Assembly: GCA_041690355.1 (NCBI GenBank)
Contig: JAWLHK010000008.1
Span: 7,374 to 71,373 of the forward strand
Length of the DNA: 64,000 nucleotides
Direction: 5' to 3'
Source: a bacterium
GTDB taxonomy: Bacteria; J088; JAWLBW01
Each line of letters opens with the position of its first letter. The stretch's first letter is position 1. A program made the translations under genes and the position numbers. The notes beneath the pieces were generated by a model, which did not search any database, had not been told where the DNA came from, and saw nothing but the letters and a program-made list of their open reading frames with translations. This document shows, piece by piece, positions 24,999 through 57,956 of the stretch.

Positions 24999-25003
24999 CG
25001 TGC

Positions 25004-36507: not shown

Positions 36508-36597
36508 GGAGAGGTGGCCGAGCGGCTGAAGGCACGCGACTGGAAATCGCGTAAACCTTAACGGGTTTCGAGGGTTCGAATCCCTCCCTCTCCGCCA
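36508..36597 (+). tRNA. tRNA-Ser (anticodon GGA), class II, CCA encoded
   Basis: GGAGAGGTGGCCGAGCGGCTGAAGGC...anticodon loop CUGGAAA...T-arm GAGGGTTCGAATCCCTC...CCTCTCCGCCA; TATAAT box about 40 nt upstream. Confidence 0.85.
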
Positions 36598-36700
36598 ATT
36601 CAAGTTACGAGTGACGAGTTACGAGTGACGAGTATTCGGCAAGGGCGTGGGTATCCTGGGCCCTTGTCGGCTCGGCGCTCAGTGCTTGGCGCTTTTCGCT
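36598..36700. repeat. Composite element copy (GTTACGA/GTGACGA heptamers plus a GGCAAGGGCGTGGGTATCCTGGGCCCTTGTC hairpin plus GCGCTCAGTGCTTGGCGCT)
   Basis: Direct reading immediately 3' of tRNA-Ser(GGA). Confidence 0.6.
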
Positions 36701-36918
36701 CGTGCCACGGCCGCGGCTGGCGATGGTGACCAGGTCCCGCGCGATGTACGGTCTGTGAACCCCGTCAGGCCCGGAAGGGAGCAGCGGTAACGGTTCCGGC
36801 ATGCGCCGCGGTCAAGCCTGGTCACCTTCTCCATCCGTGGCGCCCGCCTGCCGGTTGCCCTCTGCCATCGGCGCTGCGAGGCGAATTCTGATACGCTTTA
36901 GAATTCCGCGGCTCGACC

Positions 36919-38697: not shown

Positions 38698-38752
38698 ATG
38701 GCGCCCTGCGAACGACGCAGCGGCGCGACCCATTACGCGAAAGGATGACGGT

Positions 38753-39100
38753 ATGGCACGCGGAGGATTTCCCGGGGGCGGCGGTTTCAACCCCCAGCAG
38801 CTGATGCGTCAGGTTCAGAAGATGCAGCAGGAGATGGAGAAGGCCCAGGAAGCGCTCAAGCAGCGCGAGGTCGAGGCTTCGTCGGGTGGCGGCATGGTCA
38901 CGGTCGTCTTCAACGGCGCGCAGGAGCTGCTGCGCATGAAGATCGAGAAGGAAGTGCTCGAAGGGGGCGACCAGGAGATGCTGCAGGACCTCATCGTGGC
39001 GGCTGTCAACGAAGGCATCAAGAAGAGCAAGGATCTGCAGCAGCAGGAGCTGGGCAAGATCGCCGGCCCGGGCATGGGCGGCATGGGCGGCCTGTTCTGA
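38753..39100 (+). CDS. ybaB: YbaB/EbfC nucleoid-associated protein
   Basis: Conserved QQ..LM.Q.QKMQ.EM N-terminus; canonical dnaX-ybaB-recR synteny. Confidence 0.85.
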   Translation: MARGGFPGGGGFNPQQLMRQVQKMQQEMEKAQEALKQREVEASSGGGMVTVVFNGAQELLRMKIEKEVLEGGDQEMLQDLIVAAVNEGIKKSKDLQQQELGKIAGPGMGGMGGLF

Positions 39101-39235
39101 ATTGACGATTGACAATTGACGATTGACGATTTTTTCGTACACTCGTCAATCTGTCTTCGTCCCTTTTTTTTGTACTCCGTCCTTGCCGAAAATTGTTAAT
39201 CGTAAATCGTAAATCGTAAATTTGTCCGACCCGAT
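39095..39235. repeat. Heptamer repeats (ATTGACG ATTGACA ATTGACG ATTGACG) and, about 80 nt later, the inverted form (CGTAAAT)x3
   Basis: Direct reading between ybaB and recR. Confidence 0.6.
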
Positions 39236-39812
39236 CCAGAATCTCATTCATGAGCTGACGCGGTTGCCGTCGGTGGGCGAGAAGACCGCCACGCGGCTCG
39301 CGTTTCACCTGCTCAAGACGCCGACCGAGACGGCCCTCGCGCTTTCGCGCGCCATCGCCGAGGTCAAGGAGAAGGTGCGCCTGTGCAACCGCTGCTTCCA
39401 CCTGACGAGCGGCGAGGAGTGCAACCTCTGCATCGATCCGCGGCGCGAGGGAGATCGGATCTGCGTCGTCGAAGAGCCGCTCGATCTGCTCGCCATCGAG
39501 AAGTCGCGCATCTACCGCGGCCGCTACCACGTGCTGCACGGCGTGCTCAGTCCGATTGACGGGGTCGGCCCCGATCAGCTGCGCATCGAGCCGCTGCTGG
39601 CCCGCATTCCCGCCGAGCAGGTGCGCGAGGTCATCCTCGCGACCAATCCGTCGGTGGAAGGGGAGGCGACGGCCATCTATCTGGCCAAGCTGCTCAAGCC
39701 GATGGGCGTGCGCATCAGCCGTATCGCCCACGGCATTCCCATGGGCGGCGAACTCGAATACACCGACGAGCTGACCATCGGCCGCGCCCTCACCGACCGG
39801 CGTGAAATGTGA
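39222..39812 (+). CDS. recR: Recombination protein RecR
   Basis: HhH (LPSVGEKTATRLAFHLL), C4 zinc finger (CNRCFHLTSGEECNLC), Toprim. Confidence 0.9.
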   Translation: MSDPIQNLIHELTRLPSVGEKTATRLAFHLLKTPTETALALSRAIAEVKEKVRLCNRCFHLTSGEECNLCIDPRREGDRICVVEEPLDLLAIEKSRIYRGRYHVLHGVLSPIDGVGPDQLRIEPLLARIPAEQVREVILATNPSVEGEATAIYLAKLLKPMGVRISRIAHGIPMGGELEYTDELTIGRALTDRREM

Positions 39813-39915
39813 CGAGTTACGAGTGACGAGTGACGAGTTTCCGGCAAGGGCGTGGGCATCCTAGTCCTTGCCGGTCAGCGCTCAGTGCTTAGCGCTTGGC
39901 GCTTGGCCCTAGAAG
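39813..39915. repeat. Composite element copy ((GTGACGA/GTTACGA)n plus TTTCCGGCAAGGGCGTGGGCATCCTAGTCCTTGCCGG hairpin plus GCGCTCAGTGCTTAGCGCTTGGCGCTTGGC)
   Basis: Direct reading 3' of recR. Confidence 0.65.
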
Positions 39916-40817
39916 GGAAGCCGCAGGCTGCTCCCTTGGGGCACCAGATCCACACGCCGGATCCGATCCAGCCGGTAAGTGCGCTCTTCGCGCGTCTGCA
40001 GGCAGACGGCGCGCAGGTAATTGCGCCCCATCAGGTGCACGACGTCGCGCGGGGTCACTTCGCGCGGGAAGACGCCGCCCGTCGCCGTCGGATAGTGCAC
40101 GACGACGTCGCGCCCCTCGGCCAGGCCGCGCCCGAGGTTCCGCAGCTTGCGGGGAATGGGCACCTCGGCGTGTGGATCGAAGCGGACCCGGAACTTCCCG
40201 AGCGGATCTTCGGCGCCGGTCTCGACTGTGGCCGTGCCGGCCGGCCCGTACCCCGCAGGATTTTCCGCGAGCACGGTGGGGGCAAGGGTCTCCCGCGCCG
40301 CCCTGCGCGCTTCGAGCGCGTCGAGGCAGCGGAACAGGAGGCGCCCGGCCGTCTCGGCGTCGGCGAGCGCGCGGTGGAACTCGGTGCCCCCCAGTTCCAG
40401 GGCGGCGCTCAGGGAGGTCAGGCGGTGCGAGGGGAGCTCGGGGAAGGCCGCGCGCGAGAGCGGCAGCGTATCGACCAGATCGAAGGCGGGCAGGCGCAGG
40501 CCCGCCGTGAGGGCCGCCACGGTGAGAAAGGCCAGGTCGAACGGCGCGTTGTGGGCGGCGATCGGATCGCCGCCGAGAAACGCGAGCAGCCGGGGGAGCA
40601 CGGTCTCCATCGGCGGCGCGTCGGCCACGTCGGCGTCGGTGATGCCGTGAATGGCGGTCGAGGCCGGATCAATCGGCTCGCCCGGGTGCACCAGCGTGTG
40701 GAAGTGTTCGGCCGGTCGCCCGTCGATCCAGCGGACGGCGGCGACTTCGATGGCGCGGTTCAGCAGCGGCTGCAGGCCGGTCGTCTCGAGGTCGAGGGTG
40801 ACAATGCGGGGAATCAT
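39909..40817 (-). CDS. DEDDh 3'-5' exonuclease (DnaQ-like) fused to a C-terminal WYL-like domain
   Basis: Exo motifs I/II/III (LDLETTG, AHNAPFDLAFL, FHRALADAETAG); C-terminus NYLRAVCLQTREERTYRLDRIRRVDL resembles the WYL-domain signature. Confidence 0.7.
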   Translation of the reverse strand: MIPRIVTLDLETTGLQPLLNRAIEVAAVRWIDGRPAEHFHTLVHPGEPIDPASTAIHGITDADVADAPPMETVLPRLLAFLGGDPIAAHNAPFDLAFLTVAALTAGLRLPAFDLVDTLPLSRAAFPELPSHRLTSLSAALELGGTEFHRALADAETAGRLLFRCLDALEARRAARETLAPTVLAENPAGYGPAGTATVETGAEDPLGKFRVRFDPHAEVPIPRKLRNLGRGLAEGRDVVVHYPTATGGVFPREVTPRDVVHLMGRNYLRAVCLQTREERTYRLDRIRRVDLVPQGSSLRLPF

Positions 40818-43206: not shown

Positions 43207-43417
43207 CGGGTCAGTCTGAAATGTTTTGCCACGCGCTGCGAGGGTCGGGGCTCGGAGAGCAGGACGCCGCCGGCCGCTGCGACCTTTGCCCCGTCACGCC
43301 CCGGCCCTGCTTGCGGACCCCTGACGGCACTTTTCGAATACTTTTGTATACACTTCTCCCGGGTAAAGCCAGCCTGCCGGCGTTTGGCAAAGCGCTCTGC
43401 GATGGTACGCTGTTGCC

Positions 43418-44269
43418 ATGTCAACGTCAACCGAGAGACCCGATCTCTTCACGTATGCCGACTACCGGCGTTACCTGGCCGACTGGATCGCCTGGAAGCG
43501 CTCGAAAGGCAGCTTCTCGATGCGCTGGTTCGCGCGGCAGTCGGGATTCGGCGCCCCGAACATGCTTCGCCTCGTGATCGACGGGGCGCGCAACCTCTCC
43601 ATCCACTCCATCCGCAAGTTCGCGACCGGGTTGGCGCTCGCCGACGACGAAGGGGCCTACTTCGAGACCCTCGTGCTCATGAACCAGGCGCGCACGGTGC
43701 AGGAGCGCAAGCAGTATTACGAACGGCTGGTCGGCCATCCGAAGCGCCGGAAAGCCGAGCCGCTCGAGCGCGGACGGCTCGGTTTCTTTCAGCACTGGCT
43801 GGGCCCGGTGCTGTACGAGATGGTCCGCTTTCCCGACTTCCGCCCCGATCCGGCCTGGATCGCCGACCGGCTCGGCAGCGACCTCTCGGTGCGCGACATC
43901 CGCAAGGCGCTCGGGCTGCTGCGCGAGTCGGGTCTCGTTCGAGAGGAAGCGGAGGGCCGCTGGGTCTGCGCCGAAGAAGTCGTGCGCACGGGCGACGACG
44001 TGCGCGACGTTCACCTGTTTTCGTACCACGAGCAGGCCCTGCTCAAGGCATCCGACGCGCTGCATGAGGTTCCCTCCGGCGAACGGCACTACCACGTGCT
44101 GACCATCGCGGCGCCCCGCGAGGCGCTGGGGGATCTCAAGAAGCTGTGCAGCCGCTTCGAAGAGGAAGTTCATCGCCTCCTCGACACCTATCCGGGAGCG
44201 CCCGACGAAGTCTTTCAATTCGGACTGCAGGCGTTTCCGCTCACGCGCGGCAAAGGAGACCGCTCATGA
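43418..44269 (+). CDS. Hypothetical protein, possibly TIGR02147-like (paralogous family reported from Fibrobacter and predatory/gliding bacteria); family assignment tentative
   Basis: 283-aa ORF translationally coupled (ATGA) to the first lipoprotein of the A/B array. Confidence 0.45.
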   Translation: MSTSTERPDLFTYADYRRYLADWIAWKRSKGSFSMRWFARQSGFGAPNMLRLVIDGARNLSIHSIRKFATGLALADDEGAYFETLVLMNQARTVQERKQYYERLVGHPKRRKAEPLERGRLGFFQHWLGPVLYEMVRFPDFRPDPAWIADRLGSDLSVRDIRKALGLLRESGLVREEAEGRWVCAEEVVRTGDDVRDVHLFSYHEQALLKASDALHEVPSGERHYHVLTIAAPREALGDLKKLCSRFEEEVHRLLDTYPGAPDEVFQFGLQAFPLTRGKGDRS

Positions 44270-45003
44270 CGTTCCTTCGAATCATTTTCGTCGTTCTTCT
44301 GGTCTCCTCCTGCGGCGGCGTGCAGGCCGGTAACCCCGTCGGACCGGGCCGCTACTCGCTCACCGGCAAGGTGCTCTCGCTCGAGGGGAACGATCCGCTG
44401 CAGCGCACGGTGCGGGTGGTGGGCAATGGTCTGGACCTCGATACGGAATCCGACGCCGTCGGCGAGTATCTGTTCGACGAACTGCCCCCCGGCGCATACG
44501 TGCTGTCGGTCGATGACCGGCAGCGCGAAACCGTTGTCGTGCAAGGCGACACCATCAAGGACGTCATTCTTCCGGTCCCTGCCGCCCCCAGAAATTTCCG
44601 CCTGGTTGAAATCGGCGTCCTGAACGGCTTCTGCCTGCTCTGGGACGACGTTTCGGGGGTCGAAGCCGGGTTCCGCATCGAAGGTCCGGTGCAGTTCAGC
44701 GCACCGTCGAATCGCATCGGCGTGCTTCAGCCAATCGGCATTCCGGACGTCAATGATCGCGATGGTCTGGAAGCGAGAGCTGCCGCGGCGTGGAATGCGG
44801 ATTTTCCCGGAACGTACTACCTGACGGCGTACAACGAGTACGGCGATTCGACCGCTGTGCCGCTGGTGGTCTACGGCTACAGTCCCGATGACGTGTTTCT
44901 CGATCTGACGGCCATGCCCGATGAGCAATGGTCCGCGGATCAGCGCATGTGTCTTGCCACCGAAGTCCAGAACGGCAAACCCACCTATCTGGAGATCCCA
45001 TGA
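44266..45003 (+). CDS. Family-A lipoprotein A1 (about 245 aa; carboxypeptidase-regulatory-like plus Fn3-like domains)
   Basis: Lipobox LVSSCGG; N-terminal about 130 nt nearly identical to A3 (51215-51370). Confidence 0.65.
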   Translation: MTFLRIIFVVLLVSSCGGVQAGNPVGPGRYSLTGKVLSLEGNDPLQRTVRVVGNGLDLDTESDAVGEYLFDELPPGAYVLSVDDRQRETVVVQGDTIKDVILPVPAAPRNFRLVEIGVLNGFCLLWDDVSGVEAGFRIEGPVQFSAPSNRIGVLQPIGIPDVNDRDGLEARAAAAWNADFPGTYYLTAYNEYGDSTAVPLVVYGYSPDDVFLDLTAMPDEQWSADQRMCLATEVQNGKPTYLEIP

Positions 45004-46760
45004 CTGCAGGATGGCACCTGGGTCGGCTTGCGTCGATTGCGTTTCTGCTCGCGACCGCGTGCGCAGGCGAGACCGACCCTGTCTCGCCCCCCGATCCGGA
45101 GCCTGCCCCTGCACGAGAGGGCACGCTCCTTGTTTTCCCGGGAACGGCCGAGGTCGGTCTCGGCGAAAGCTTTGTCTTTCGCGCCTATGTTACCGGCCCC
45201 TCTGACCCCGGCACGGTCTGGCAGATTCGCGAAGGGGGAGCCGGCGGTTGGATCAACCAAGGCGGGATTTACAGCGCGCCCATGACCGCGGGTGAGTATC
45301 ATCTCGATGTTCACAGCACGGCCTTTACAGAAATGACCACTACGGTCACGGTAAAGGTCCGGCCGCGGCTTGCCTGGCCACGAGTGGTCAATCCGACACC
45401 TGGTGAGAGCGTTGTGATTGAGCCGCTTCTGCGCGACGTAGCCCGCGTGCTGCAACCAGTGCCCGATCCTGTGTTCCGAGTACTCGAGGGTGATGCCGGC
45501 GGTACCATTACACCCGACGGCGTTTATACGGCGCCGGCGCGCCAGGGCTCCTACCGCATCGAAGTACGCTCGCGCTCGGGAGTGATTTTTCCGGCCGTAA
45601 TCACGGCCAGCGTTCCGGCCCAGCCCGTGTGGATCGCCGACTTCGAGTTTCCTGACGGCGGCGCCATACTGGGTGCCGCGGCATTACCGGACGACAGCAC
45701 GATCCTGTATGGGGGTAACGGCGTGGTATCCCTCTGGGGCTGGGACGGAAAGCCTGTCGAAGGGAAGACCGTCAGGATCTCGCCGGGAATGGTTTTTCAG
45801 GAGCACCTTGATATTCCGGACGCCACGGTGTTGGCTGCCGGCTCCTATCTGACGGCCGTGGATCATTCCGGCAGCATCCTGTGGACGCGGCATTTCTCGG
45901 CGCCGATCGCGTCTCTTGCCGAGGCAGGCCCAGACCGTATCCTCTTTCTGAGCTCGACTGGCTACGGGACCCAGGCAGACTTCGGAGAGCTGGACCGACA
46001 AGGGCAGATTGTGTGGAAAAGGAGAACGAACTGGAGCGCGCGGCGCGCCGTGAAGGCAGGCGAACGAATCATTGTGGCAGGCATCGGGGGTAATGATTCG
46101 ATCCAGGTGAGCACATTCACCGCAGACGGGTTGCCGGTGGCGACTTTCGCGTATCACCTTCCAGAGGCAGGTTACCTCGTGATTCGTCAGGCCGGACGCC
46201 GCCTGTTTGCCGCACAAGGCTCCGGTCCACTGGGGATCACCTCGCTCTCCAGCAACGGAGAAATCGCGTGGCGAACGCAGATACTGGCACGTGGCCGGTT
46301 TGCACGGGGCTCGATTACAGGGCTCGCAGAGACCCCCGAGGGTGACCTGGTTGCTGGGGGGGTTCTGCATGAGCGGCTGGCCGGTCGAGACTACCCTCGG
46401 CGTTGGATCGCCAAGCTCTCATCGGACGGGGATGTCATCTGGGCCCGGGAAATCCGGGGTCTCCGGTCAGCGCTACAGACTCTCTCCATTGCGGTTTCTC
46501 CGCGCGGCCTGATCGACTTCGTGTATTACGGATATGCGCTCGCCAACACGATGGGCCGTATCCCGCCGGACGGCTGGATAGCGATCCGCGAAGATGCAGA
46601 GTTCGAAATCCTGCCGCTCGACCTATCCACCCGGCCCCTTGCGTGGGAAAAGACCGAGCTGGCGCCTTTCCAAGTCGTCGAAAGCAGTTTTTCGCCGGTT
46701 ACGTACGACACGTACACCGTCACACCGACGTCTATGAACTATGCCCGGCTCGCTCCGTAA
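45000..46760 (+). CDS. Family-B lipoprotein B1 (about 586 aa; conserved Ig-like N-terminal half, variable propeller-like C-terminal half)
   Basis: Lipobox LLATACAG; ATGA overlap with A1; paralog of B2, B3, B4. Confidence 0.65.
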   Translation: MTAGWHLGRLASIAFLLATACAGETDPVSPPDPEPAPAREGTLLVFPGTAEVGLGESFVFRAYVTGPSDPGTVWQIREGGAGGWINQGGIYSAPMTAGEYHLDVHSTAFTEMTTTVTVKVRPRLAWPRVVNPTPGESVVIEPLLRDVARVLQPVPDPVFRVLEGDAGGTITPDGVYTAPARQGSYRIEVRSRSGVIFPAVITASVPAQPVWIADFEFPDGGAILGAAALPDDSTILYGGNGVVSLWGWDGKPVEGKTVRISPGMVFQEHLDIPDATVLAAGSYLTAVDHSGSILWTRHFSAPIASLAEAGPDRILFLSSTGYGTQADFGELDRQGQIVWKRRTNWSARRAVKAGERIIVAGIGGNDSIQVSTFTADGLPVATFAYHLPEAGYLVIRQAGRRLFAAQGSGPLGITSLSSNGEIAWRTQILARGRFARGSITGLAETPEGDLVAGGVLHERLAGRDYPRRWIAKLSSDGDVIWAREIRGLRSALQTLSIAVSPRGLIDFVYYGYALANTMGRIPPDGWIAIREDAEFEILPLDLSTRPLAWEKTELAPFQVVESSFSPVTYDTYTVTPTSMNYARLAP

Positions 46761-46785
46761 GCAGACGGACAAGGAGAGAACCCCC

Positions 46786-48591
46786 GTGACGTATCTGACA
46801 ACAATTCTGGCTTCCGTGCCATGGTCCACTCGCGACCAGGCGCGCCCGCCGCTCCGGCAAGGGCTGCCCTTGTTGCTTCTCCTGGCATGCGCCTGTGGCG
46901 GTGGGAGTGACTTGCCACCGGCACCCGCCAATCCCGATCCCCAGACTGCTCGCGAAGGCGCGCTCAAGGTCTTTCCCGATTCCATGGATATGGGCGTCGG
47001 CGAATTCCGTGCTTTCCGCGCCTTCGTCACCGGCCCGGCCGACTTGAAAACGATCTGGGAAATTCGCGAAGGTAATTCCGGCGGCCGGGTCACACAGGGG
47101 GGCGTCTACAGCGCACCCGTCACCCCCGGAGAATATCATCTCGACGTGCGTAGCGCGGCCTGGTCTGAATTGACCACCTCGGTAACCGTCCGTGTCCGGC
47201 CTCCTCTTGCGTGGCCTCGTGCGGTGAATCCGATGCCTGGCGAGAGCGTCCGAATCGAGCCGCTCATGCGCCTTGCGAGTGGGGAGCTAACCCCTGTACC
47301 CGACCCCGTTTTCCGCGTAGTGGAAGGAGGTGCCGGTGGCTCGATTACCGCCGGGGGGCTCTATACGGCTCCTTCTGAACCGGGCTCGTACCAGATTGAA
47401 GTCAGCTCCTCTTCGCATAGGATCTTTGCGACTGTAGTCACGGCCAGTGTGGTATCGCACCCTGTCTGGGTGGCCCGTGCAAAGTCGCCGACCGATGTTC
47501 ACGGCATGGTCGCGCTGCCGGATGGTTCCCTGATTTCCTACGGGGGTGGTGTGATCTCGCGATGGGACTGGGAGGGCCAGGTCATATTCAGCACCTCGTT
47601 CTCACAGCGGGGTTACTCCGATCACCTTGTGACCGCCGATTCGATACTGCTCTCCACCGGCTTCAGTATAGATGCCTTTGACCACGGCGGCGACTTCAGT
47701 TGGACCATCTACCTCGGTCGGTTATTGACATCCCTGGTTGAAACCGACGCAGGAACCTTTTTATTCGTTGGCGGCAGCGTTTGGCCCCTGGTCGGCGAGA
47801 TTGGCGCAGACGGGCAACCGGTCTGGATAAGAAAGGTCAATGGATACTACGAGACGGGCATCAAGAATGACGGCAATATCATACTGGCTGGCTCAGGTCC
47901 GGGTTATGAGCACGTTACGTTCGCCGTGCTTAACGAGGACACATCGCCGCGTGCAACATTCATGTACCACTTTCCGGGCGCCGGTTCGGTCAGACCGCAG
48001 TGGGTCAAAAGAAAGTTTCTCGCACCGACGGAATATTGGGGACTGGTCTCCTTTACGACTGCCGGAGAGGTCGAGTGGGGCGTGCAGTTTCTGATCGGAG
48101 GTCGAGTGGCTCGTGGGTGGATCGATGGAATGGATTGGATGCCCGACGGCGACCTGGTCGTTGCGGGGATCCTGCACGAGGAACTCGGCGAACAGCAGCA
48201 TTCAAGGCACTGGATTGCCAGGTTGGCCCCGGACGGGAAAATCAGGTGGGCACGCGAGTTTCGCGGACTGGGGGACTCCGAACGACTGGTCTCTCTCGAC
48301 ATTGCTCCAACGGGCCTGATTGACTTCACGTACCACAAGCAAGCTTTCATCCCCTGGGACCAGGACTGGGTGAACCTTTTCGGCCGCCTGCCGCCGGATG
48401 GATGGCTTGGGTTTCCGCTGGGATCGGAGTTCGATCTGGTTACGCTCCCGATGTCGACCCGGCCCCTCGAGTGGATACGCAAGGACACGAACCTCATTTA
48501 TGTGACCGATCCGGGTCTTAATCCGCAGCCGTTCACGACGCCGCCGCCGGTCACCAGCGCAACTCTAGACTATGTCCGCATTGCTCCGTGA
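46786..48591 (+). CDS. Family-B lipoprotein B2
   Basis: GTG start after AAGGAGAG SD; lipobox LLLACACGG; conserved block REGALKVFPDS...YHLDVRS...LAWPRAVNP. Confidence 0.6.
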   Translation: MTYLTTILASVPWSTRDQARPPLRQGLPLLLLLACACGGGSDLPPAPANPDPQTAREGALKVFPDSMDMGVGEFRAFRAFVTGPADLKTIWEIREGNSGGRVTQGGVYSAPVTPGEYHLDVRSAAWSELTTSVTVRVRPPLAWPRAVNPMPGESVRIEPLMRLASGELTPVPDPVFRVVEGGAGGSITAGGLYTAPSEPGSYQIEVSSSSHRIFATVVTASVVSHPVWVARAKSPTDVHGMVALPDGSLISYGGGVISRWDWEGQVIFSTSFSQRGYSDHLVTADSILLSTGFSIDAFDHGGDFSWTIYLGRLLTSLVETDAGTFLFVGGSVWPLVGEIGADGQPVWIRKVNGYYETGIKNDGNIILAGSGPGYEHVTFAVLNEDTSPRATFMYHFPGAGSVRPQWVKRKFLAPTEYWGLVSFTTAGEVEWGVQFLIGGRVARGWIDGMDWMPDGDLVVAGILHEELGEQQHSRHWIARLAPDGKIRWAREFRGLGDSERLVSLDIAPTGLIDFTYHKQAFIPWDQDWVNLFGRLPPDGWLGFPLGSEFDLVTLPMSTRPLEWIRKDTNLIYVTDPGLNPQPFTTPPPVTSATLDYVRIAP

Positions 48592-48617
48592 GGAGCGATC
48601 CATCAAGGAGCCTGACC

Positions 48618-49361
48618 ATGAACCTCAAGCCTTCCTCTATCGTTCTCTCGTTGCTGCTATCCGGGTGCGGCGGCGATGTGGGTGCCGACGCCGCGGCTCA
48701 GAGTTTCTCGCTTGCTGGAAAAGTGCTTTCACTCGAGGGGACCGAGCCGCTCGAGCGAACCATTCGCCTCGCGGGGAACGGCCTCGAGCATAACACACAG
48801 TCGAATGGCGAAGGCGACTATCGTTTTGCCGGCTTGCAATCAGGTACTTATGAACTGCAGGTCGAGGGGCGCCAATGGGAAACGGTCCTTATCCTCGGCG
48901 ATATGGTCAAGGACGTCATTCTTCCGGTACCGGCTGCGCCCCGGAACTTCCGGCTGGTCAATATCGGCGTGGTCAACGGCTTCTGTGTCCTGTGGGATGA
49001 CATGTCCGGGGTCGAGGCCGGATTTCGTATCGACGGGACAATGACCTTGGAGGCACCCACCGACCGGGTGGGGGTTCTGCGTGAGCTCGCCGTGCCGGAA
49101 ATTGACGTGCGTGACGGTCTCGAAGAAAGAGCAGCTGCTGCGTGGAGCACGAGGTTCTCCGGCACCTATTACCTGACCGCATTCAACGAGTTTGGCGATT
49201 CTGCCGCGGTACCCCTTGTGGTTTACGGGTATACCCCCGACGAAGTCCTGCTCGATTTGAAGGCTGCGCTTCCGCCGGACCAGTGGTCGAAGGACCAAAG
49301 CCTCTGTCTCAATACCGAACATGCAGGCGGGGGTCAACCTGCCTATATCCAACGGCCCTGA
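48618..49361 (+). CDS. Family-A lipoprotein A2
   Basis: Lipobox LLLSGCGG; shares KDVILPVPAAPRNFRLV and LTAFNEFGDS blocks with A1 and A3. Confidence 0.65.
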   Translation: MNLKPSSIVLSLLLSGCGGDVGADAAAQSFSLAGKVLSLEGTEPLERTIRLAGNGLEHNTQSNGEGDYRFAGLQSGTYELQVEGRQWETVLILGDMVKDVILPVPAAPRNFRLVNIGVVNGFCVLWDDMSGVEAGFRIDGTMTLEAPTDRVGVLRELAVPEIDVRDGLEERAAAAWSTRFSGTYYLTAFNEFGDSAAVPLVVYGYTPDEVLLDLKAALPPDQWSKDQSLCLNTEHAGGGQPAYIQRP

Positions 49362-49376
49362 ACAGAAGAGGCGATC

Positions 49377-51143
49377 ATGTTCCGGTTTCTTATGGCCTTC
49401 ATGCTGTTTACCACTGCCTGCGCAGCAGAGCCTGAATCCCACTCGGCACCCCCGCCGACGCCGGAGCCTGCGCGGGAGGGATCCCTTGTCGTCATCCCTG
49501 CTGCTGCCGAGGTCGGTCTTGAAGAGGGCTATATCTTTCGCGCCTACGTCACCGGGCCCACCGATCCGGGCACGGTCTGGAAGATCCGCGAAGGGGCTGC
49601 CGGGGGCTGGATTACCCAGGGCGGCTATTACAGCGCTCCCATGACCGCGGGGGAGTATCATCTGGACGTCCACAGCACCGCCTTTACCGACATGACGACG
49701 ACCGTGACCATCCGGGTTCGGCCTCGCCTTGCCTGGCCCCGCGTCGTCAATCCGAATCCAGGGCAGAGCGTCCAGATCAAGCCGTTCATGCGCGCCGCCG
49801 GCGGGGAGCTGCAACCCGTGCCCGACCCCGTTTTTCGTGTTCTCGAGGGAGACGGGGGAGGCACGGTAACCTCTGACGGCACGTATACTGCGCCCGGGAA
49901 ACCGGGAACGTACCGGATCGAAGTCAGCTCGGCCACGCACCGGATTTTCGCGGGGCTTATCACCGCCAGCGTTCCACCCCGACCCGTGTGGATGACGCGA
50001 ATCACTGCTCCGCGTGTTCACATGACGGGGGTCGCTGCCACCGCAGACGGTCACACGCTCGCGTACGGAACAGACGGGGCGCTGGCTTTGTTCGGCGAGG
50101 ATGGCGAGCCCTACCGAAGCTGGAAGATGACAGACGCCGATTGGACGCAGATTCACGGCCACCACGAAAATGCAGACGGCATGATGCTTCTCCTTGGGAA
50201 CGAGACGCCGGATACGCTGGTATCTCTTGACCGGCAATGGAACATCCGCTGGACCAGCCGGATCCCCTATACCTTTCTTGGCGTCAGCATGACCACGGCA
50301 GAGAATACCGCGTTCGTGTCGAGCAGCTGTAACTGGCAATACTGTTACGATTCGATATTCGGGGAGTTGAACGGTTCGGGCAGCCTCCTGTGGGCCCGAA
50401 GACTGAGCCTGACCTATCAGAGCGTCATGGAATCCGACGATCAGTTCGTCCTGGTAGACCCGAACGGCATTTCCGTCTCTACATTTGCTCGTGATGGATC
50501 GCCGCTCAAGCAAAAGTCGTTCAAAGGGCGTGAGATACCCGGCTATTACTCACGCGCAAGCCGGGTCGGCGGTGGGGCCGCTGTCTATTCAGACAAGGGG
50601 ATGGACCCGCTGTCGATGGCGCTTCTGACGGGTGATGGGGAGATGGCGTGGTGGGTTGAGTTCCTGGTCAACGGTCAGCCCGTTCGAGGCAGAATCGAGG
50701 CTGTCGATCAGACCCCCGAAGGGGACATTGTCGCCACCGGGACCCTGATGGAAGAGGTGTGGGTCAAGCACTACTATTCGAAATGGATTGCGCGTATTGC
50801 TTCGGACGGAACTGTGCTCTGGGCGCGGCGGTTCGGCGTCGAATTTCCTTACGCTGATCATTCACTGAGTCTCGCTGTCGACGATGTGGGGCTCATTCAC
50901 TTCAGCTATCGCGATTGGAGCGGGCTCAACCTCGTGGGTCGCATCCCCCCGGATGGCTGGCTTGCCATCCCCGGCGACGCCGAGGTTGACATGGTTCCGC
51001 TCACGCTGTCGACAAGGCCCATCGAATGGGAGCAGCAAGACTGGGGCCTGCCATACGTCTGGAATGCCTATTTCACGTCGGTTACGGATGATGCCCTGAC
51101 GATTACATCCTTCACCCCGGATTACGTCCGCATTGCGCCTTGA
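49377..51143 (+). CDS. Family-B lipoprotein B3
   Basis: Lipobox LFTTACAA; N-terminal half about 75% identical in protein to B1. Confidence 0.65.
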   Translation: MFRFLMAFMLFTTACAAEPESHSAPPPTPEPAREGSLVVIPAAAEVGLEEGYIFRAYVTGPTDPGTVWKIREGAAGGWITQGGYYSAPMTAGEYHLDVHSTAFTDMTTTVTIRVRPRLAWPRVVNPNPGQSVQIKPFMRAAGGELQPVPDPVFRVLEGDGGGTVTSDGTYTAPGKPGTYRIEVSSATHRIFAGLITASVPPRPVWMTRITAPRVHMTGVAATADGHTLAYGTDGALALFGEDGEPYRSWKMTDADWTQIHGHHENADGMMLLLGNETPDTLVSLDRQWNIRWTSRIPYTFLGVSMTTAENTAFVSSSCNWQYCYDSIFGELNGSGSLLWARRLSLTYQSVMESDDQFVLVDPNGISVSTFARDGSPLKQKSFKGREIPGYYSRASRVGGGAAVYSDKGMDPLSMALLTGDGEMAWWVEFLVNGQPVRGRIEAVDQTPEGDIVATGTLMEEVWVKHYYSKWIARIASDGTVLWARRFGVEFPYADHSLSLAVDDVGLIHFSYRDWSGLNLVGRIPPDGWLAIPGDAEVDMVPLTLSTRPIEWEQQDWGLPYVWNAYFTSVTDDALTITSFTPDYVRIAP

Positions 51144-51189
51144 CGGCCGCGCGAACGCCAAGACGAACCCGGTCGAAACGAGACCACTC

Positions 51190-51921
51190 ATGAGACGATC
51201 TTTCCAACATATTCTTTTCGTCCTTCTGCTCTCCTCCTGCGGCGGCGTGCAGGCCGGCAACCCCGTGGGCCCGGGCCGCTACTCGCTCACCGGCACGGTG
51301 CTCTCGCTCGAGGGGAACGATCCGCTGCAGCGCACGGTGCGGGTGGTGGGTAACGGCCTGGATCGAAAGACCGCATCCGACGCGGATGGCGCTTACCGGA
51401 TTACCGACCTCGAGTCGGGAACCTACAGCATGTCCGTCGACGGAAAGCATACCGAGACCGTCGTCGTCGAAGAGGATACGGTGAAGAACGTGGTCCTTCC
51501 GGTCCCGGCCGCGCCGAAGAACTTCCGCTTCGTCGAGATCGGCGTCCTCAACGGCCTGTGCCTGCTCTGGGACGATGTTTCCGGCGTCGAGGCCGGGATG
51601 CGCATCGACGGGCCGCTCCCCTTTGAGATCCACACCAACTACGAAGGGTTGCGGCAGAGTATCGAGATTGGCGATCCCCAGGTGCGCGAAGGGCTTGAGA
51701 CCCGCGCCGCCGCGGCGTGGAACGAGAGCGTGCCGGGCACGTATGTGCTGACGGCGTACAACGAATTCGGCGATTCGGCGCCCGTGTACCTCGAAATCTA
51801 CGGCTACGCCGTCTCGGACGTTCCGCTTTTCGAGCGCGATCCCTACGAGCCGACCGTAGACGAGCAGAGATGTCTGGAGACGGCCGCCGACGCGAACCCG
51901 CGTTTCCTCGAGAGCCGGTAA
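51190..51921 (+). CDS. Family-A lipoprotein A3
   Basis: Lipobox LLLSSCGG; 5' end near-identical to A1. Confidence 0.65.
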   Translation: MRRSFQHILFVLLLSSCGGVQAGNPVGPGRYSLTGTVLSLEGNDPLQRTVRVVGNGLDRKTASDADGAYRITDLESGTYSMSVDGKHTETVVVEEDTVKNVVLPVPAAPKNFRFVEIGVLNGLCLLWDDVSGVEAGMRIDGPLPFEIHTNYEGLRQSIEIGDPQVREGLETRAAAAWNESVPGTYVLTAYNEFGDSAPVYLEIYGYAVSDVPLFERDPYEPTVDEQRCLETAADANPRFLESR

Positions 51922-51938
51922 CGAAAAGGAGCCCCATC

Positions 51939-53669
51939 ATGAAGCACATCCGCATTTTTCCTTTCGCACTCCTGCTCGCGTTTGCGGCCTGCGCGGCTGA
52001 GGATACCGCAACGCCCGCAGCGCGCACGCACGGAACCATTGTCGTGCAGCCGGCGGCGGCCGAACTCGGCTTCGGAGAAACGGTCGCCTTTCGCGCCCGG
52101 GTAACCGGCCCCACCGATCCGGGTACGGAGTGGAGCGTGCGCGAAGGCGCTGCCGGCGGGGTGGTGCAGGCCAACGGTATCTACACGGCGCCGGCCGTTG
52201 CGGGCGAGTACCATCTGGACGTGCGCAGCCGCGCGCACCCCGAGCTCGTGACGACGGTGGCCGTGGTCGTTCGCGGGCGGCTGGCGCATCCGTGGGTAGT
52301 CAACCCGTTGCCGGGCGAGGGTGTGCAGCTCGAGCCCCGCGTGGCGATCGCCGGGCAGGCTTCCGCGCCGCTCACCGATCCGGTCTGGCGGGTCCTCGAT
52401 GGCGACGCCGGCGGCAGCATTACGCCGGGCGGCGTCTACACTGCTCCTGCACACGCGGGCTCCTTCCGCATCGAGGTGGGTTCTGCTTCGCACAGCGTCT
52501 TTCCCACCATTCTCACCGCCAGCGTGCCGCCCGAACCCGTCTGGGCCCGAAGCTTCGGCGTCAAGCAGCTGAATGCGGTCGCCCTTCTCCCGGATGCGCG
52601 CACGGCGACGATCGCCGGTACGCGAACGGGCTTCTGGGATACGCGGGCCGAGCTCGAGACCGCGTTCGTGTTCAAGGAATTTTTCTACGGCGCCTACGCG
52701 CAAGCGCTCACGTCCGACGGTTTCGTCATTGCCTCGCGTTCGCTGGGCACGCGCGTGACGGCTTTTCACTCCGGCGGCGGCGTGCAATGGAGCACCGATC
52801 TGCCGCTGCGCGTGCACGGCCTCAAAGTGCAGAGCGGCGACGAAGTGTTCTTTACCAGCGAAGACGGACGCTACGGTCTGCTCGACGCGCGGGGCGAACT
52901 CCTCTGGGTCAAGGACGTTGCGCAGGCGCGCATGCTCGCGGGCGGCGGTCGCGACGATGAGGGGTTCACGCTCTTCGACGCCAAGGGGACGCTCCGGGTG
53001 CACCGCCTGGCGCCCGACGGATCGCCGCGCTCCCGCGTGGAATACGTGCCGCCGCGAGAATTCGTGATTGACGATTTTGAGGTGCACCCGCTCGGCGACA
53101 CGTATGCCGTACGCTATATCGATCTCTATGGGCTGACCGTTCCCGGGCTTCTGCGCTTCGGCTTCGACGGAAGTTTCCAGTCGGGCTTCACGCTCGAGCA
53201 TGACGGTGCTCCGCTCGAGGGGTGGATTACCGGCGTGTCTCAGGCGCCCGACGGCGACCTGCTGCTGACCGGCACGGCCCGGGTCCGCGACATCCTTGGC
53301 GAGTACGCCCCCTGGTTTGCACGGCTCGATCCCGAGGGGCATGTCCGTTGGGCGCATCGTTTTCACATTCCGGGCGACTCGCTCCCGTGGCTGGGCGGCG
53401 GTGCGGTAACTCCCTCGGGCATGCTGCTGCTGTGGGGAACCCAGAATGGCGCGGCCTGGATGGCCCGGGTTCCGGCCGATGGCTGGCTGGGTCTGCCCGA
53501 GAACGCGCCGCTCGCCTTGCGACGCTTCGACCTCACGACGCGCGATGCCGAGTGGTCTGCACAGACGCTGACGGCGGTCACGCCCACGGATGCCAGTCTG
53601 GATGCGGTGACGAACGCGACGGTGACCGTCTCGTCTGCGGGGTTCCCCTACACCCGCCTGACCCCCTGA
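51939..53669 (+). CDS. Family-B lipoprotein B4
   Basis: Lipobox LLLAFAACAA; conserved N-terminal blocks, divergent C-terminus. Confidence 0.65.
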   Translation: MKHIRIFPFALLLAFAACAAEDTATPAARTHGTIVVQPAAAELGFGETVAFRARVTGPTDPGTEWSVREGAAGGVVQANGIYTAPAVAGEYHLDVRSRAHPELVTTVAVVVRGRLAHPWVVNPLPGEGVQLEPRVAIAGQASAPLTDPVWRVLDGDAGGSITPGGVYTAPAHAGSFRIEVGSASHSVFPTILTASVPPEPVWARSFGVKQLNAVALLPDARTATIAGTRTGFWDTRAELETAFVFKEFFYGAYAQALTSDGFVIASRSLGTRVTAFHSGGGVQWSTDLPLRVHGLKVQSGDEVFFTSEDGRYGLLDARGELLWVKDVAQARMLAGGGRDDEGFTLFDAKGTLRVHRLAPDGSPRSRVEYVPPREFVIDDFEVHPLGDTYAVRYIDLYGLTVPGLLRFGFDGSFQSGFTLEHDGAPLEGWITGVSQAPDGDLLLTGTARVRDILGEYAPWFARLDPEGHVRWAHRFHIPGDSLPWLGGGAVTPSGMLLLWGTQNGAAWMARVPADGWLGLPENAPLALRRFDLTTRDAEWSAQTLTAVTPTDASLDAVTNATVTVSSAGFPYTRLTP

Positions 53670-53708: not shown

Positions 53709-54833
53709 ATGGCGTGCATGGATGCCGAACGGCTCGCCGAACTGTTGCGCCTGCCCGACGAGCGCCCGCACGTGCACGGATTTCACCCGTACCCGGCGCG
53801 GTTCTCGCCGCTGCTCGTGCGTGGGCTGCTGGCCGAGGTGCCGCCCGGTTCGCGGATCTTCGATCCGTTCGCGGGGAGCGGAACCGTGCCCGTCGAGGCC
53901 CGCCTGCGGGGCTCCCATGCGCTCGCGAACGACCTGAATCCGATCGCCGTGCTGCTCTGCCGCGTGAAGGCGACGCCGCTCGCCCCGAAGATCTTCGACG
54001 CGCTTGAGCGCGATCTGGTCTACCTGCGTAAGTACGTGGCCGGCCGCCTGGCCAGCCGCGACGAGGCCGAGCACGTGAAACTTCCGCCGGGACCGCGACT
54101 GTTCCTTCCCCATGTCTACTGGGAGCTCCAGGTACTGCTCGGCGGCATCCAGCGCGTCCGGCATCCCCACAACCGCGATATCTTTCTCGCCGCCCTCTCG
54201 TCCATCGTGAACCGGGTGAGCCTGCAGGCACGCGAGAGCCAGCCCGAGCGGCGGCTTCCGGGCGGGCGCGGCGGGCCGCGGACGGCGGTCCTCTTTTACC
54301 AGCAGGCCGAGCGGTTCATCGCCGATCTGCGGCTCTTCAGCCGCCAGGCGCGCGACGGCTCACTGCGCGTCTGGCAGGCCGACGCGCGGGACCTGGGCGG
54401 AATTCCCGATGCGACGGCCGACCTCGTGGTCACCTCGCCCCCCTACGGCGGAACCTACGACTACGCCGCCATGCACGCCCTGCGCAACGTCTGGCTCGGC
54501 ATGGACTGGGGGCCCTTCGAAAAGCTCGAAATCGGCGCCCGCCGCCATCAGGCCGAGAAGGATGCGCTCGCGCGACTGCGCGCCGATCTCCAGGCGGTCT
54601 TCACCGCCCTGCGCCGGGTCGTACGCGCGGGGGGCGGCGTGTGGTGGGTCATTGCCGACGGGGTCATGGCCGGCAAGGCATACCGGGCCGAGGAGCTGAG
54701 TGCCGAGGTGGCCGAGGCCGCGGGGTGGAAGGTGGAGGCGGCCGGCGCGGTCGAGCGGCCCATGTGGTCGGAAGAGGAAGCCGATGCCTATGCGAAGCGG
54801 GCGAAACGCGAGCATCTGATGCTGTTCCGCTGA
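53709..54833 (+). CDS. SAM-dependent amino-methyltransferase (DNA N6-A/N4-C or RNA N2-G class); orphan, no nuclease partner seen
   Basis: Motif I DPFAGSGT and motif IV SPPYGG. Confidence 0.6.
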   Translation: MACMDAERLAELLRLPDERPHVHGFHPYPARFSPLLVRGLLAEVPPGSRIFDPFAGSGTVPVEARLRGSHALANDLNPIAVLLCRVKATPLAPKIFDALERDLVYLRKYVAGRLASRDEAEHVKLPPGPRLFLPHVYWELQVLLGGIQRVRHPHNRDIFLAALSSIVNRVSLQARESQPERRLPGGRGGPRTAVLFYQQAERFIADLRLFSRQARDGSLRVWQADARDLGGIPDATADLVVTSPPYGGTYDYAAMHALRNVWLGMDWGPFEKLEIGARRHQAEKDALARLRADLQAVFTALRRVVRAGGGVWWVIADGVMAGKAYRAEELSAEVAEAAGWKVEAAGAVERPMWSEEEADAYAKRAKREHLMLFR

Positions 54834-55830: not shown

Positions 55831-56391
55831 TTATTTCGCTGCTTTGAGTTCCTCGAGCTTGGCCTTGAACTGCTCGTTGGCCGGCTCGATGCCCACGGCG
55901 AGCTGCAGCTGCAGCTTCGCCCCCGCGACGTTCTTGTTCTTGAGCGCGTCCATGGCCGCCATCCAGTAGCGCTTGCCGGGGCCGTTGCCGCCGTCGTACG
56001 TCGTGCCCCCCTGCTGCTGCCGCTTGATCTCCTCTTCGATGGAGAAGCGCACCTTGGCCGGGTCCTCGGCGATCTGCCGATCGTAGGCTTCACGCCACTG
56101 CGGCGAGCGCAGGATATTGTAGGCCTCGGCAATCCGCTTGTAGATCTGATGGACGGCGTTGCGGAAGTTTTCGTGGGGAAAACGGAAGTAGCGATCCGGA
56201 TGGTAGTCGCGCGACAGCTTGTAGAAAGCCTTCTTGACCTCGCCCTGATCTGCCTTGGGCGAGATCTCGAGCAGCTGGTAGTAATTCAGGCGCGGCAGCG
56301 CCTTCCACACCAGCTTGAGCTTGTTGACGATCTCGGGGTCGAGTGCAGGCGCCTGCTGCAATCCGGTATCCGGCGCAGTATCGGTGCTCAT
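55831..56391 (-). CDS. J-domain (DnaJ-like) co-chaperone, partner of the upstream Hsp70
   Basis: YYQLLEISPKADQGEVKKAFYKLSRDYHPDR with HPD motif; ATGA overlap with the Hsp70 gene. Confidence 0.75.
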   Translation of the reverse strand: MSTDTAPDTGLQQAPALDPEIVNKLKLVWKALPRLNYYQLLEISPKADQGEVKKAFYKLSRDYHPDRYFRFPHENFRNAVHQIYKRIAEAYNILRSPQWREAYDRQIAEDPAKVRFSIEEEIKRQQQGGTTYDGGNGPGKRYWMAAMDALKNKNVAGAKLQLQLAVGIEPANEQFKAKLEELKAAK

Positions 56392-57956
56392 ACGTTGACC
56401 TTCATGCCTTCGGCCTTGGCCCGCTCGAGCTCTTCGGAAGACAGGCCGCCGCTCACGGTGATGCGCACCTTTTCTTCCTTGCCGGTACGGGCATCGCGGG
56501 CCTGGACGCTCACGAGACCATCGGTGTCGATGTCGAAGGTGACTTCAATCTTGACTTCGCCGCGGGGCGCCGCCGGAAGGCCCGTCAGCGTGAACTCGCC
56601 GAGCTGTTCGTTCTCGGCCGCGTTGCGGCTTTCGCCCTGATAGATCTGGATCTTGACGGAAGTCTGGTTGTCGCGGCTCGTCGTGAACGAGCGGGTCGCC
56701 GACGTCGGGATCGGGCTGTTGCGCGCGATGAGGACGTCGACCAGCCCGCCGGCCGTTCCGATGCCGAGGCTCTGCGGGGTGACGTCGAGCAGCAGCGAGC
56801 CCCCTTCGCGTCCGCCGCCGGCGAGCGATTCGGCCTGGATGGCGGCCCCGAGGGCCACGACCAGATCGGGATCGATGCCGATCTTGGGTTCCTTGAGGTA
56901 GTAATTGCGCACGGCGTCCTGAATGATCGGCATCTTGGTCGAGCCGCCGACGAGGATCACCGCTTCGATTTCATCGACCGTCAGGTGGGCCGCCTGCAGG
57001 GCCTCGTCGCAGACCTTGAAGGTGCGCTGGATGAGGTCGTAGGTGATGTTGGCGAACAGGTTGCGCGTGATCGGAATGTCGAGGTCGAGCGGCTTGCCGT
57101 CCTTGCTCTTGCCGATTCCTTCAACGTGCGCCTTGACTTCGAGCGCGTCGCTGAGGGCGATCTTGACCCGTTCGGCTTCGACCTTGAGCTTCTGCAGGGC
57201 TTCTTTGTCCTTGCGCAGATCGATCTTGGTCTGCTGGAAGAAGGAGTCGGCAAAGTAGTCGATGAGCCGGTCGTCGAAGTCGTCGCCGCCCAGATACGTG
57301 TCGCCCGAGGTCGAAACGACTTCGAAGACGTCGGTGCCGATCTCGAGCACCGAGACGTCGAAGGTGCCCCCGCCGAGATCGTAGATGACGACCTTCTGGT
57401 TGAGCCCCTGGCCGAACCCGTAGGCGAGGGCCGCGGCGGTCGGCTCGTTGAGAATGCGCAGGACGTCGAGCCCGGCGATCATGCCGGCGTCCTTGGTGGC
57501 CTGGCGCTGGCCGTCGTTGAAGTAGGCGGGCACGGTGATGACCGCCTGCGTGACCGGCTCACCCAGGTAGGCCTCGGCGGTCTTTTTCATCTCGCGCAGG
57601 ATGAAGGCGCCGATTTCCGAGAGGCTGTAGTCTTTTTCGGCGACCTTGATACGCACGCTGTCGTTGGGCCCTTCGACAATTTCGTAGGGCATGACCATCT
57701 GCGCCTTCTTCACCTCGCCGGAGAAGAACTTGCGGCCGATCAGACGCTTCGATGAATAGACGGTCGTGCGCGGCTCGACGACCACCCGCTTTTTGGCCTC
57801 GGTGCCGACGATGACGTTGGAGGCGTCGAGAAAAGAGACGACCGAGGGGATGATGCGCTCGCCGGCGGCGTTGGGCACCGTGGCAGGCTTTCCGTTTTCG
57901 ACGACGGCTACGATCGACGTCGACGTCCCCAGGTCAATACCGATGACTTTTCCCAT
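56388..57956 (-). CDS. Hsp70 family chaperone paralog (non-canonical DnaK-like)
   Basis: [27 protein letters not shown] motifs; shorter C-terminal lid than canonical DnaK. Confidence 0.9.

Follow-up and report, generated by a model that had tools for sequence, protein, structure and literature searches.

Tandem arrays of related lipoprotein genes can be read in more than one way, and the question raised by the locus described here is whether it encodes a programmed system for varying the cell surface or a fixed set of paralogs that accumulated by duplication. The locus lies in a 64,000-nucleotide (nt) stretch of DNA, referred to below as the window, from contig JAWLHK010000008.1 of assembly GCA_041690355.1 (GTDB lineage Bacteria; J088; JAWLBW01). 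On its plus strand, a 283-amino-acid (aa) protein that we call R is followed by seven intact lipoprotein genes belonging to two families, A and B, in the order A1-B1-B2-A2-B3-A3-B4. A first-pass annotation made from the sequence had proposed a variable-cassette system, and this proposal was not supported: the seven genes are complete, synonymous sites are saturated outside a single 135-nt tract, no switch machinery occurs among the scanned neighbors, and there are no repeats beyond the paralogy itself. We consider it probable that the locus is an anciently expanded R-A-B operon, one that encodes an unchanging set of envelope lipoproteins, diverged in their propellers, under the control of a putative helix-turn-helix protein of the TIGR02147 family.

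Gene models were built from the open reading frame (ORF) listing together with inspection of start codons. The two paralogous families and their order, as first described, were borne out by the ORFs and by pairwise identities of 49 to 63% among A1, A2, and A3 and 33 to 46% among B1 to B4. A signal peptide and a lipobox-like cysteine could be read from the translations of all seven A and B products, which are therefore predicted lipoproteins; the lipoboxes are VSSC in A1, LSGC in A2, LSSC in A3, and LLAC in B2, with relaxed forms in B1 (ATAC), B3 (TTAC), and B4 (FAAC). The junctions, read directly, have ATGA overlaps at R/A1 and A1/B1 only. The overlap of the gene for the 283-aa protein with the array, first described as translational coupling, was thus confirmed, whereas the ATGA overlap claimed for the A/B pairs in general applies to one of the three, A2/B3 and A3/B4 being 15 and 17 nt apart; the nonoverlapping junctions overall span 15 to 46 nt. 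Ribosome-binding sites of the GGAG type are clear ahead of A1, B1, B2, A2, and B4 and weak ahead of B3 and especially A3. For B2 this refers to a start at 46786, a GTG with a AAGGAGAG site upstream, which is one of three candidate positions (46741, 46786, or 46816). Sequence blocks of family A that had been called invariant are nearly, not strictly, so: A3 has KNVVLPVPAAPKNFRFV, A1 has LTAYNEYGDS, and A2 has LTAFNEFGDS. Hidden Markov model (HMM) searches found no further copies of A, of either half of B, or of R in the window.

The age of the array is indicated by its synonymous divergence. With the exception of the A1/A3 tract, all paralog pairs are saturated at synonymous sites, with 1.1 to more than 2 synonymous substitutions per site (dS), which argues that the duplications are ancient. 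The two halves of the B proteins have diverged to very different extents. The N-terminal half, which is predicted to consist of two Ig-like repeats, has 0.16 to 0.43 nonsynonymous substitutions per site (dN) and 54 to 73% amino acid identity, compared with a dN of 0.64 to 1.1 and 22 to 37% identity in the C-terminal half. This agrees with the conserved and divergent halves described in the first-pass annotation, which had given B1 and B3 about 75% identity in the N-terminal half and differing C-terminal halves; the measured values are 73% and 33%. An HMM of the N-terminal half reaches relatives at E values of 1e-21 to 1e-38, while that of the C-terminal half gives values of 1e-5 to 1e-7, depending on the set searched, or nothing. 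Apparent omega (dN/dS) is below 1 across the paralogs, with dS saturated, and there was no evidence of positive selection.

In phylogenies, A1 to A3 form one clade against 11 other members of the A family, and B1 to B4 form one clade apart from the B genes of two related loci, L002 and L003 (Table 1). Because the window copies cluster apart from those of their relatives, the expansion is lineage specific, and since the two B genes of L002 are in-paralogs of each other, expansion has also been recurrent. With respect to A1B1, A2B3, and A3B4, the topologies (A3,(A1,A2)) and (B4,(B2,(B1,B3))) match each other and are consistent with duplication of A-B pairs as units.

The exception to saturation is found near the 5' ends of A1 and A3. 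In a codon alignment, the two genes differ at 8 of 135 nt in the tract (94% identity) and at 215 of 561 nt downstream of it (62%); Nei-Gojobori estimates are a dS of 0.17 and a dN of 0.02 within the tract and a dS of 1.56 and a dN of 0.37 in the remainder. Informative sites at which A1 matches A3 and not A2 outnumber those at which A1 matches A2 and not A3 by 43 to 3 in the tract, compared with 83 to 96 elsewhere (Fisher P = 1e-9), and the A tree outside the tract is (A3,(A1,A2)). The tract is best explained as a true mosaic left by a single event of gene conversion or recombination. Conversion between A1 and A3 had been proposed at the outset, from near identity of about the first 130 nt, and this part of the proposal stands; the exchange is recent only in a relative sense, since 6% divergence has already accumulated and it is no longer fresh.

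No recombinase, transposase, reverse transcriptase, or defense-system protein was detected among the neighboring genes scanned with Pfam, NCBIfam, and PADLOC, a scan that left some small ORFs of the window outside, and a diversity-generating retroelement or invertase was rejected for lack of either enzyme in that set. Repeats were limited to the paralogy itself, the search for inverted repeats returned none beside a promoter, and silent cassettes were absent, all seven genes being full length with a start and lipobox of their own. An Rfam scan returned only the signal recognition particle (SRP) RNA and two tRNAs, all distant from the array.

The gene that leads the array encodes a full-length member of the TIGR02147 family: R matches profile positions 2 to 271 of 272 at 192.8 bits (cutoff, 50) and also matches DUF4423 (PF14394) at 116.3 bits (cutoff, 30). 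With a profile of 21 homologs, residues 21 to 73 weakly resemble the helix-turn-helix domains of HigA, C.BclI, immunity repressors, and ClgR (E values of 0.014 to 0.7), and one R homolog has faint precomputed matches to HTH_3/HTH_31. TIGR02147/DUF4423 ("Fsuc_second") was originally defined from a set of paralogs in Fibrobacter succinogenes and is also annotated in Bdellovibrio, for example in Bd3700, which a proteomic study lists as upregulated during growth in prey (PMC12546842). Beyond that listing, the literature searched contained no function for TIGR02147, no account of its coupling to a CGVxAGNP lipoprotein or of an upstream palindrome, and nothing on similar arrays or on a related metagenome-assembled genome (MAG) accession. 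Among the defense-system models of PADLOC, A and B had no match and R had only a stray match to JetB (E value of 0.0019 over 27 residues), and a role in defense was rejected on that basis.

An AT-rich block upstream of R holds a palindrome, GAATAC-N4-GTATAC, that is unique in the window, where 0.01 occurrences would be expected by chance. The 26-nt block is identical at 26 of 27 positions to L002 9910 to 9936, which lies 68 nt ahead of R in that locus; the two R proteins are just 62% identical, and the spacers are otherwise unalignable. Upstream of R, L003 and L004 retain TTCTGTA(T/A)ACA, and L005 and L011 have GTATTC-N4-GAATAC. The conservation of the palindrome suggests that R, as a putative dimeric helix-turn-helix protein, may regulate its own expression at this site.

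The coupling of R to lipoprotein genes is not confined to the window: the three genes make up a small module, not described before, that recurs in a few other uncultured bacteria. A word-index search found the A family on this contig only, and the loci of relatives were reached through their R homologs, after which the homology of A and B was confirmed by BLAST and HMM searches. R-A-B-B, R-A-B, and R-A arrangements were recovered in this way (L002, L003, and L004, respectively), and in all three R and the gene behind it share 4 nt, in L003 after correction of the A start. The MAG that carries the R-A-B-B locus L002 also carries L004, so the module takes more than one form per genome. In L004 (positions 638 to 3998), the last 4 nt of an unrelated lipoprotein gene are shared with the start of R, which is followed by A alone. 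A profile search of 1.84 billion representative proteins recovered about a dozen full-length A-family clusters at 50% identity, with lengths of 212 to 257 aa; the other matches of this profile were CarboxypepD_reg repeats within giant proteins.

More distant R homologs, in L005, L008, L009, L010, and L011, are likewise translationally coupled to a lipoprotein. In L008 and L010, one chain joins the N-terminal motif described below to a beta-sandwich and to a propeller, of the RCC1 type in L008 and the Kelch type in L010. The single lipoprotein of L008 (positions 978 to 5582) corresponds to two consecutive ORFs in L009 (positions 3171 to 6446; 624 aa and at least 448 aa). The two-ORF form is either a natural split or the product of a frameshift or assembly error, and if real it would parallel the separate A and B genes. 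Exact look-ups of A1, R, and RecR returned no record, a scan of species-representative genomes gave a single weak match to the Ig repeat, in a Myxococcaceae MAG, and two metagenome scans gave no A match and two distant R loci. Other database matches that appeared B-like were rejected as relatives of B, as the part in common is a generic Ig repeat and they have no propeller. Such repeats, of the type in the N-terminal half of B, also make up a 606-aa lipoprotein in L013/L014 (positions 3774 to 9821), which is encoded 6 nt after a 1,406-aa secreted M4 (thermolysin-type) peptidase with no R nearby.

Whatever domains come next, the lipoprotein that follows R carries C-G-V-x-A-G-N-P directly from its predicted lipidated cysteine; among the close R-coupled lipoproteins, the mature chain begins C-[G/S/M](G)-V-x-A-G-N-P. 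In a six-frame translation of about 180 kb, the motif occurred only in post-R genes and in A3. Of 11 A-family representatives, 9 have it, and all 138 other CarboxypepD_reg proteins lack it. Different loci write it with varying synonymous codons, which argues for selection on the peptide. Within the array, the motif was kept in A1 and A3 and lost in A2, and the conversion tract spans exactly this N-terminal region. Looser "GNP" matches in L005, L011, L012, and one Myxococcaceae protein without R nearby may simply be Gly/Asn/Pro-rich tethers.

Table 1. Features of the R-led array in the window, with related loci and R-coupled proteins
Feature or locus	Position or accession	Strand	Description
Conserved upstream block CACTTTTCGAATACTTTTGTATACAC	43328-43353		AT-rich, holds palindrome; candidate operator/promoter element of R-led operon
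Palindrome GAATAC-TTTT-GTATAC	43336-43351		67 nt upstream of R
R	43418-44269	+	283 aa; TIGR02147/DUF4423 family, putative XRE-type helix-turn-helix regulator
A1	44266-45003	+	245-aa lipoprotein; mature N terminus CGGVQAGNP; CarboxypepD_reg-like beta-sandwich and C-terminal domain with two invariant cysteines
B1	45000-46760	+	586-aa lipoprotein; Pro-rich tether, two putative Ig-like repeats, predicted beta-propeller of ~8 blades
B2	46786 or 46816 to 48591	+	B-family lipoprotein of ~591-601 aa; no A gene of its own
A2	48618-49361	+	247-aa A-family lipoprotein; sole copy without the GNP motif (CGGDVGADAAA)
B3	49377-51143	+	588-aa B-family lipoprotein; nearest paralog B1
A3	51190-51921	+	243-aa A-family lipoprotein; CGGVQAGNP
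B4	51939-53669	+	576-aa B-family lipoprotein; most divergent B copy
Mosaic (conversion) tract, A1 copy	44296-44430	+	135 nt; encodes end of signal peptide, lipobox, GVQAGNP motif, first sandwich strands
Mosaic (conversion) tract, A3 copy	51223-51357	+	135 nt; 94% identical to A1 copy
CGVxAGNP motif sites	Window 44311-44337 and 51238-51264; L002 10927-10950		Also in L004, L008, L009, and L010, at start of post-R gene
L002	GCA_041687475.1		R, A (250 aa), B (599 aa), B (577 aa)
L003	JGI metagenome		R, A, B (600 aa)
L004	Same MAG as L002		Unrelated 577-aa lipoprotein, R, A (251 aa)
L008 R-coupled lipoprotein			1,534 aa; CarboxypepD_reg, PKD, RCC1 propeller
L009 R-coupled lipoprotein			624 aa; CarboxypepD_reg
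L010 R-coupled lipoprotein			842 aa; TIG, Kelch propeller
L011 and L005 R-coupled proteins			No assigned domain

The domains of the A and B proteins were assigned with differing success. The N-terminal domain of A is likely a CarboxypepD_reg-type sandwich, borderline by the curated cutoff: against PF13620, which has a gathering score of 32.3 bits, A3 lies just above (32.8 bits) and A2 (31.0 bits) and A1 (26.4 bits) lie below. All 14 aligned A proteins match CarboxypepD_reg at about residues 30 to 95, with a best E value of 9e-8, and a profile of A1 to A3 retrieves CarboxypepD_reg repeat proteins. The C-terminal part, about 150 residues with two invariant cysteines, matches no Pfam family, and its profile found nothing below an E value of 0.9 among PDB sequences. 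The first-pass annotation had described A as CarboxypepD_reg-like plus Fn3-like. The former assignment is retained at this borderline strength, and the Fn3 label was rejected as unverified: none of 14 A members matched PF00041 at E values of up to 10, no match came from the PDB, the model of this domain has a predicted local distance difference test (pLDDT) score of about 30, and the resemblance to Fn3 is at the level of motifs only (PxAPxN, LxW, YxLxAxNxxGxS).

B1 to B4 have no Pfam match of their own for the Ig-like repeats; the proteins matched by the HMM of the N-terminal half are named "Ig-like domain-containing" and carry precomputed I-set, Ig_3, and Big_2 matches. An AlphaFold2 model of B1 (pLDDT, 73.8; predicted template modeling score, 0.73) contains two beta-sandwiches, of which the first has low confidence, and then about 32 strands in residues 211 to 586, mostly with a pLDDT of 75 to 90. 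Foldseek matched this strand-rich part to 7- and 8-bladed propellers with a probability of 1.0 and E values down to 7e-8. The propeller-like character first suggested for the C-terminal half of B is therefore upheld by the model, in which it forms a predicted beta-propeller of about 8 blades. A lipid anchor combined with such a propeller recalls proteins of the BamB type, with PQQ_2 (PF13360) or delta-60 (TIGR02608) repeats; BamB (5ayw_B) is among the Foldseek matches, and there are weak repeat matches below the family cutoffs for B4 (PQQ_2, 23.9 bits) and B2 (delta-60, 24.7 bits). The resemblance is at the level of the fold only: B has two additional putative Ig-like domains, occurs in a multicopy array, and has no beta-barrel assembly machinery context.

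Several explanations compete with a static, anciently expanded operon. One is a polymorphic and actively recombining system of surface adhesins, receptors, or antigens, in which conversion would reassort the variable distal domains carried by a conserved scaffold. The mosaic tract in A1 and A3 is genuine, the propeller half of B diverges fast beside a conserved Ig half, and the family has expanded independently in two lineages, L002 with its two in-paralogous B genes being the other. We nevertheless regard this as unlikely, as the sole tract, already 6% diverged, sits in the conserved N terminus of A and leaves the variable propellers untouched, synonymous sites are saturated in every other pair, and B/B comparisons in 90-nt windows reach 83% identity at most; the missing silent cassettes and long repeats, the lack of a recombinase or reverse transcriptase among the scanned neighbors, and an apparent omega below 1 also count against it. 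In the Borrelia vlsE/vls, Mycoplasma vlp/vsa, and Treponema tprK systems, variation relies on one expression site with promoterless silent cassettes or on invertible or slippage switches, and many fresh tracts are found in the variable regions. The window resembles these systems in its tandem paralogous lipoprotein genes and in having at least one conversion-like tract and differs from them in that the genes are complete and anciently diverged and the one tract lies in a conserved N terminus. TraA/TraB of Myxococcus xanthus offers another parallel, in that a social bacterium has a pair of envelope proteins whose recognition domain varies (PMC13184517), the kind of role envisaged in the first-pass annotation, but it has no sequence or domain relationship to the window genes, TraA variability is allelic between strains rather than laid out in a tandem array, and no evidence links the window locus to kin recognition. 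As an example of surface variation the locus is weak, and the array has the look of a paralog expansion that is old and by now mostly static. The tract itself might also reflect constraint on the nucleotide sequence, through mRNA structure or the translation-initiation region, with no exchange having taken place. It covers the start region of the coding sequence, its G+C content at third codon positions (GC3) is very high (0.87 and 0.93 in the two copies), and strong codon bias yields identical motif codons even in L002. We consider this extremely improbable. The dS between A1 and A3 falls from 1.56 to 0.17 across 45 codons in which A2 still differs from both at a dS of about 1.1, the tree incongruence is significant, and initiation constraints would be expected in the first 30 nt after the ATG, which lie ahead of the tract and show no conservation between A1 and A3.

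Other alternatives concern what the lipoproteins do. The A and B proteins might form a substrate-capture or nutrient module that captures polymers, either glycans or proteins, on the cell exterior so that they can be degraded or taken up, as the surface glycan-binding lipoproteins of Bacteroidota do, with paralogs tuned to different substrates and R as a local regulator. Carbohydrates or proteins are commonly bound by modules of the kinds present here, namely CarboxypepD_reg sandwiches, Ig-like repeats, and propellers, the placement of lipoproteins behind a local regulator is a fitting layout, and a distant tandem-Ig relative directly follows the secreted M4 peptidase mentioned above. However, no transporter, TonB-dependent receptor, glycoside hydrolase, or peptidase is encoded in or beside the array or in L002 to L004, and the M4-linked protein has only the generic Ig repeat in common with B, which leaves this proposal doubtful. 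A sensor-regulator pair, in which R would be controlled by lipoproteins responding to a cue from the envelope or the cell's surroundings, could account for the strict 4-nt coupling of R to a motif-bearing lipoprotein in all close homologs. It is very unlikely: R has no membrane segment or secretion signal when inspected by eye, without a predictor, and so could not contact a lipoprotein directly, there is no transducer gene, and seven sensors for one regulator would be unparsimonious. Finally, R-A-B could represent an undescribed regulator-coupled lipoprotein system in which CGVxAGNP is a dedicated signal for sorting, surface export, or processing. The signal would be common to otherwise unrelated passengers, from the small A proteins to giants bearing RCC1, Kelch, or PKD domains, always directly after a TIGR02147 gene, and conversion between A1 and A3 would have kept the signal on two of the three A copies. 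A precedent is the lipoprotein export signal of Bacteroidota, a short conserved acidic motif after the lipidated cysteine, such as K-D-D-E or S-D-D-D. Both are short conserved peptides placed right after Cys+1 of lipoproteins with unrelated passenger domains, but G-V-x-A-G-N-P is not acidic and is bound to one type of operon. A role in sorting is only a candidate one, and the proposal as a whole seems improbable to us.

For the expanded R-A-B operon that we favor, we hypothesize the following. The region is most likely a single operon, in which a promoter region containing the palindrome drives R, and R, as an XRE-type helix-turn-helix protein, probably autoregulates and is translationally coupled to the seven envelope lipoprotein genes. 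The ancestral unit would have been R-A-B, with A a small lipid-anchored protein composed of the CGVxAGNP end, the CarboxypepD_reg-type sandwich, and the two-cysteine domain and B a lipid-anchored protein composed of two Ig-like repeats and the propeller. Long ago, the A-B unit may have duplicated in tandem, with A3-B4 splitting off first, followed by A1-B1 and A2-B3, and with B2 arising as an extra copy. Divergence would then have run three to four times as fast in the propeller halves as in the Ig halves, and a later, single short exchange would have realigned the 135 nt at the 5' ends of A1 and A3, leaving both with the family-typical N terminus, restored on one of them. A and B may be binding modules that act jointly at the outer membrane, and divergence among the propellers may have produced a fixed set of specificities, held by subfunctionalized paralogs, rather than programmed variation.

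Several points weigh against this reading or limit it. With dS saturated, positive selection on the propellers can be neither demonstrated nor excluded. The half-sites upstream of R in L005 and L011 are arranged differently from those of the window and L002, and a common operator is therefore not certain. Promoter and terminator motif counts did not rise above chance level, and the single operon consequently rests on the short spacers and the lack of other signals. An AlphaFold2 model of A1, built from three sequences, was poor (pLDDT, 42, falling to about 30 in the C-terminal domain), which leaves half of A without a fold assignment. The static view of the locus is drawn from one genome, with function and localization inferred. 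Codon usage also sits awkwardly with simple duplication in place: GC3 is 0.67 to 0.71 in B1, B2, A2, and B3, compared with 0.80 to 0.83 in R, A3, and B4 (0.82 in A3) and 0.87 in the flanking genes. This pattern is compatible with A3-B4 as the oldest resident pair, while the low values of the inner block might reflect relaxed codon adaptation or a separate history.

If correct, the proposed arrangement would give TIGR02147/DUF4423, in Fibrobacter, Bdellovibrio, and their relatives, its first functional context, that of a local regulator of coupled envelope lipoproteins. It would also define two small protein families without a curated model and provide a post-lipobox peptide as a candidate determinant of lipoprotein sorting beyond the Bacteroidota, a setting in which little is known of such signals. 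Three elements are new, namely the module conserved among loci, the motif after the lipobox, and the putative operator; with a function that is proposed from these features, they amount to a new form of a familiar theme and not to a new kind of system.

The array is flanked by ordinary chromosomal genes of about 66% G+C. The SRP RNA, dnaX, recR, an exonuclease-WYL protein, and RNase D lie upstream; a type II DNA methyltransferase-like gene, a DnaJ/Hsp70 pair, and kinases lie downstream; and many histidine and Ser/Thr kinases are found among the neighbors. This gene content and base composition are compatible with a Myxococcota-like bacterium but are no proof of one. A tRNA, the SRP RNA (36728 to 36826), dnaX (36919 to 38697), a small ORF, and recR (39222 to 39812) occupy positions 36508 to 39812 in their usual conserved order, which shows that the array resides in an ordinary chromosomal region; the second tRNA is at 20781 to 20867. 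The exonuclease (39909 to 40817, minus strand) is an RNase_T-type 3'-5' exonuclease fused to a C-terminal WYL domain. The methyltransferase-like gene (53709 to 54833, plus strand; N6_N4_Mtase, PADLOC MTase_II) begins 39 nt after B4, with no restriction partner recognized adjoining it and with a following 155-aa ORF that matches no family. Farther downstream, a 186-aa DnaJ-domain protein overlaps a 522-aa Hsp70 that stops short of the last approximately 80 positions of the Pfam profile (55831 to 57956, minus strand), forming a noncanonical chaperone pair.

Two adjoining genes for lipoproteins of about 509 aa are found at 25004 to 28056 on the minus strand; they overlap by 4 nt, show weak paralogy (29% identity across about 170 aa), and are matched by no Pfam or NCBIfam family. 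A 527-aa ORF (28053 to 29636) and a 251-aa secreted protein (24252 to 25007) belong to the same string of genes, which may be a second small lipoprotein cluster. The 189-aa cytidine/deoxycytidylate-type deaminase encoded at 31473 to 32042 on the minus strand has its best match to the MafB19-like deaminase profile and is probably a housekeeping tRNA or nucleotide deaminase.

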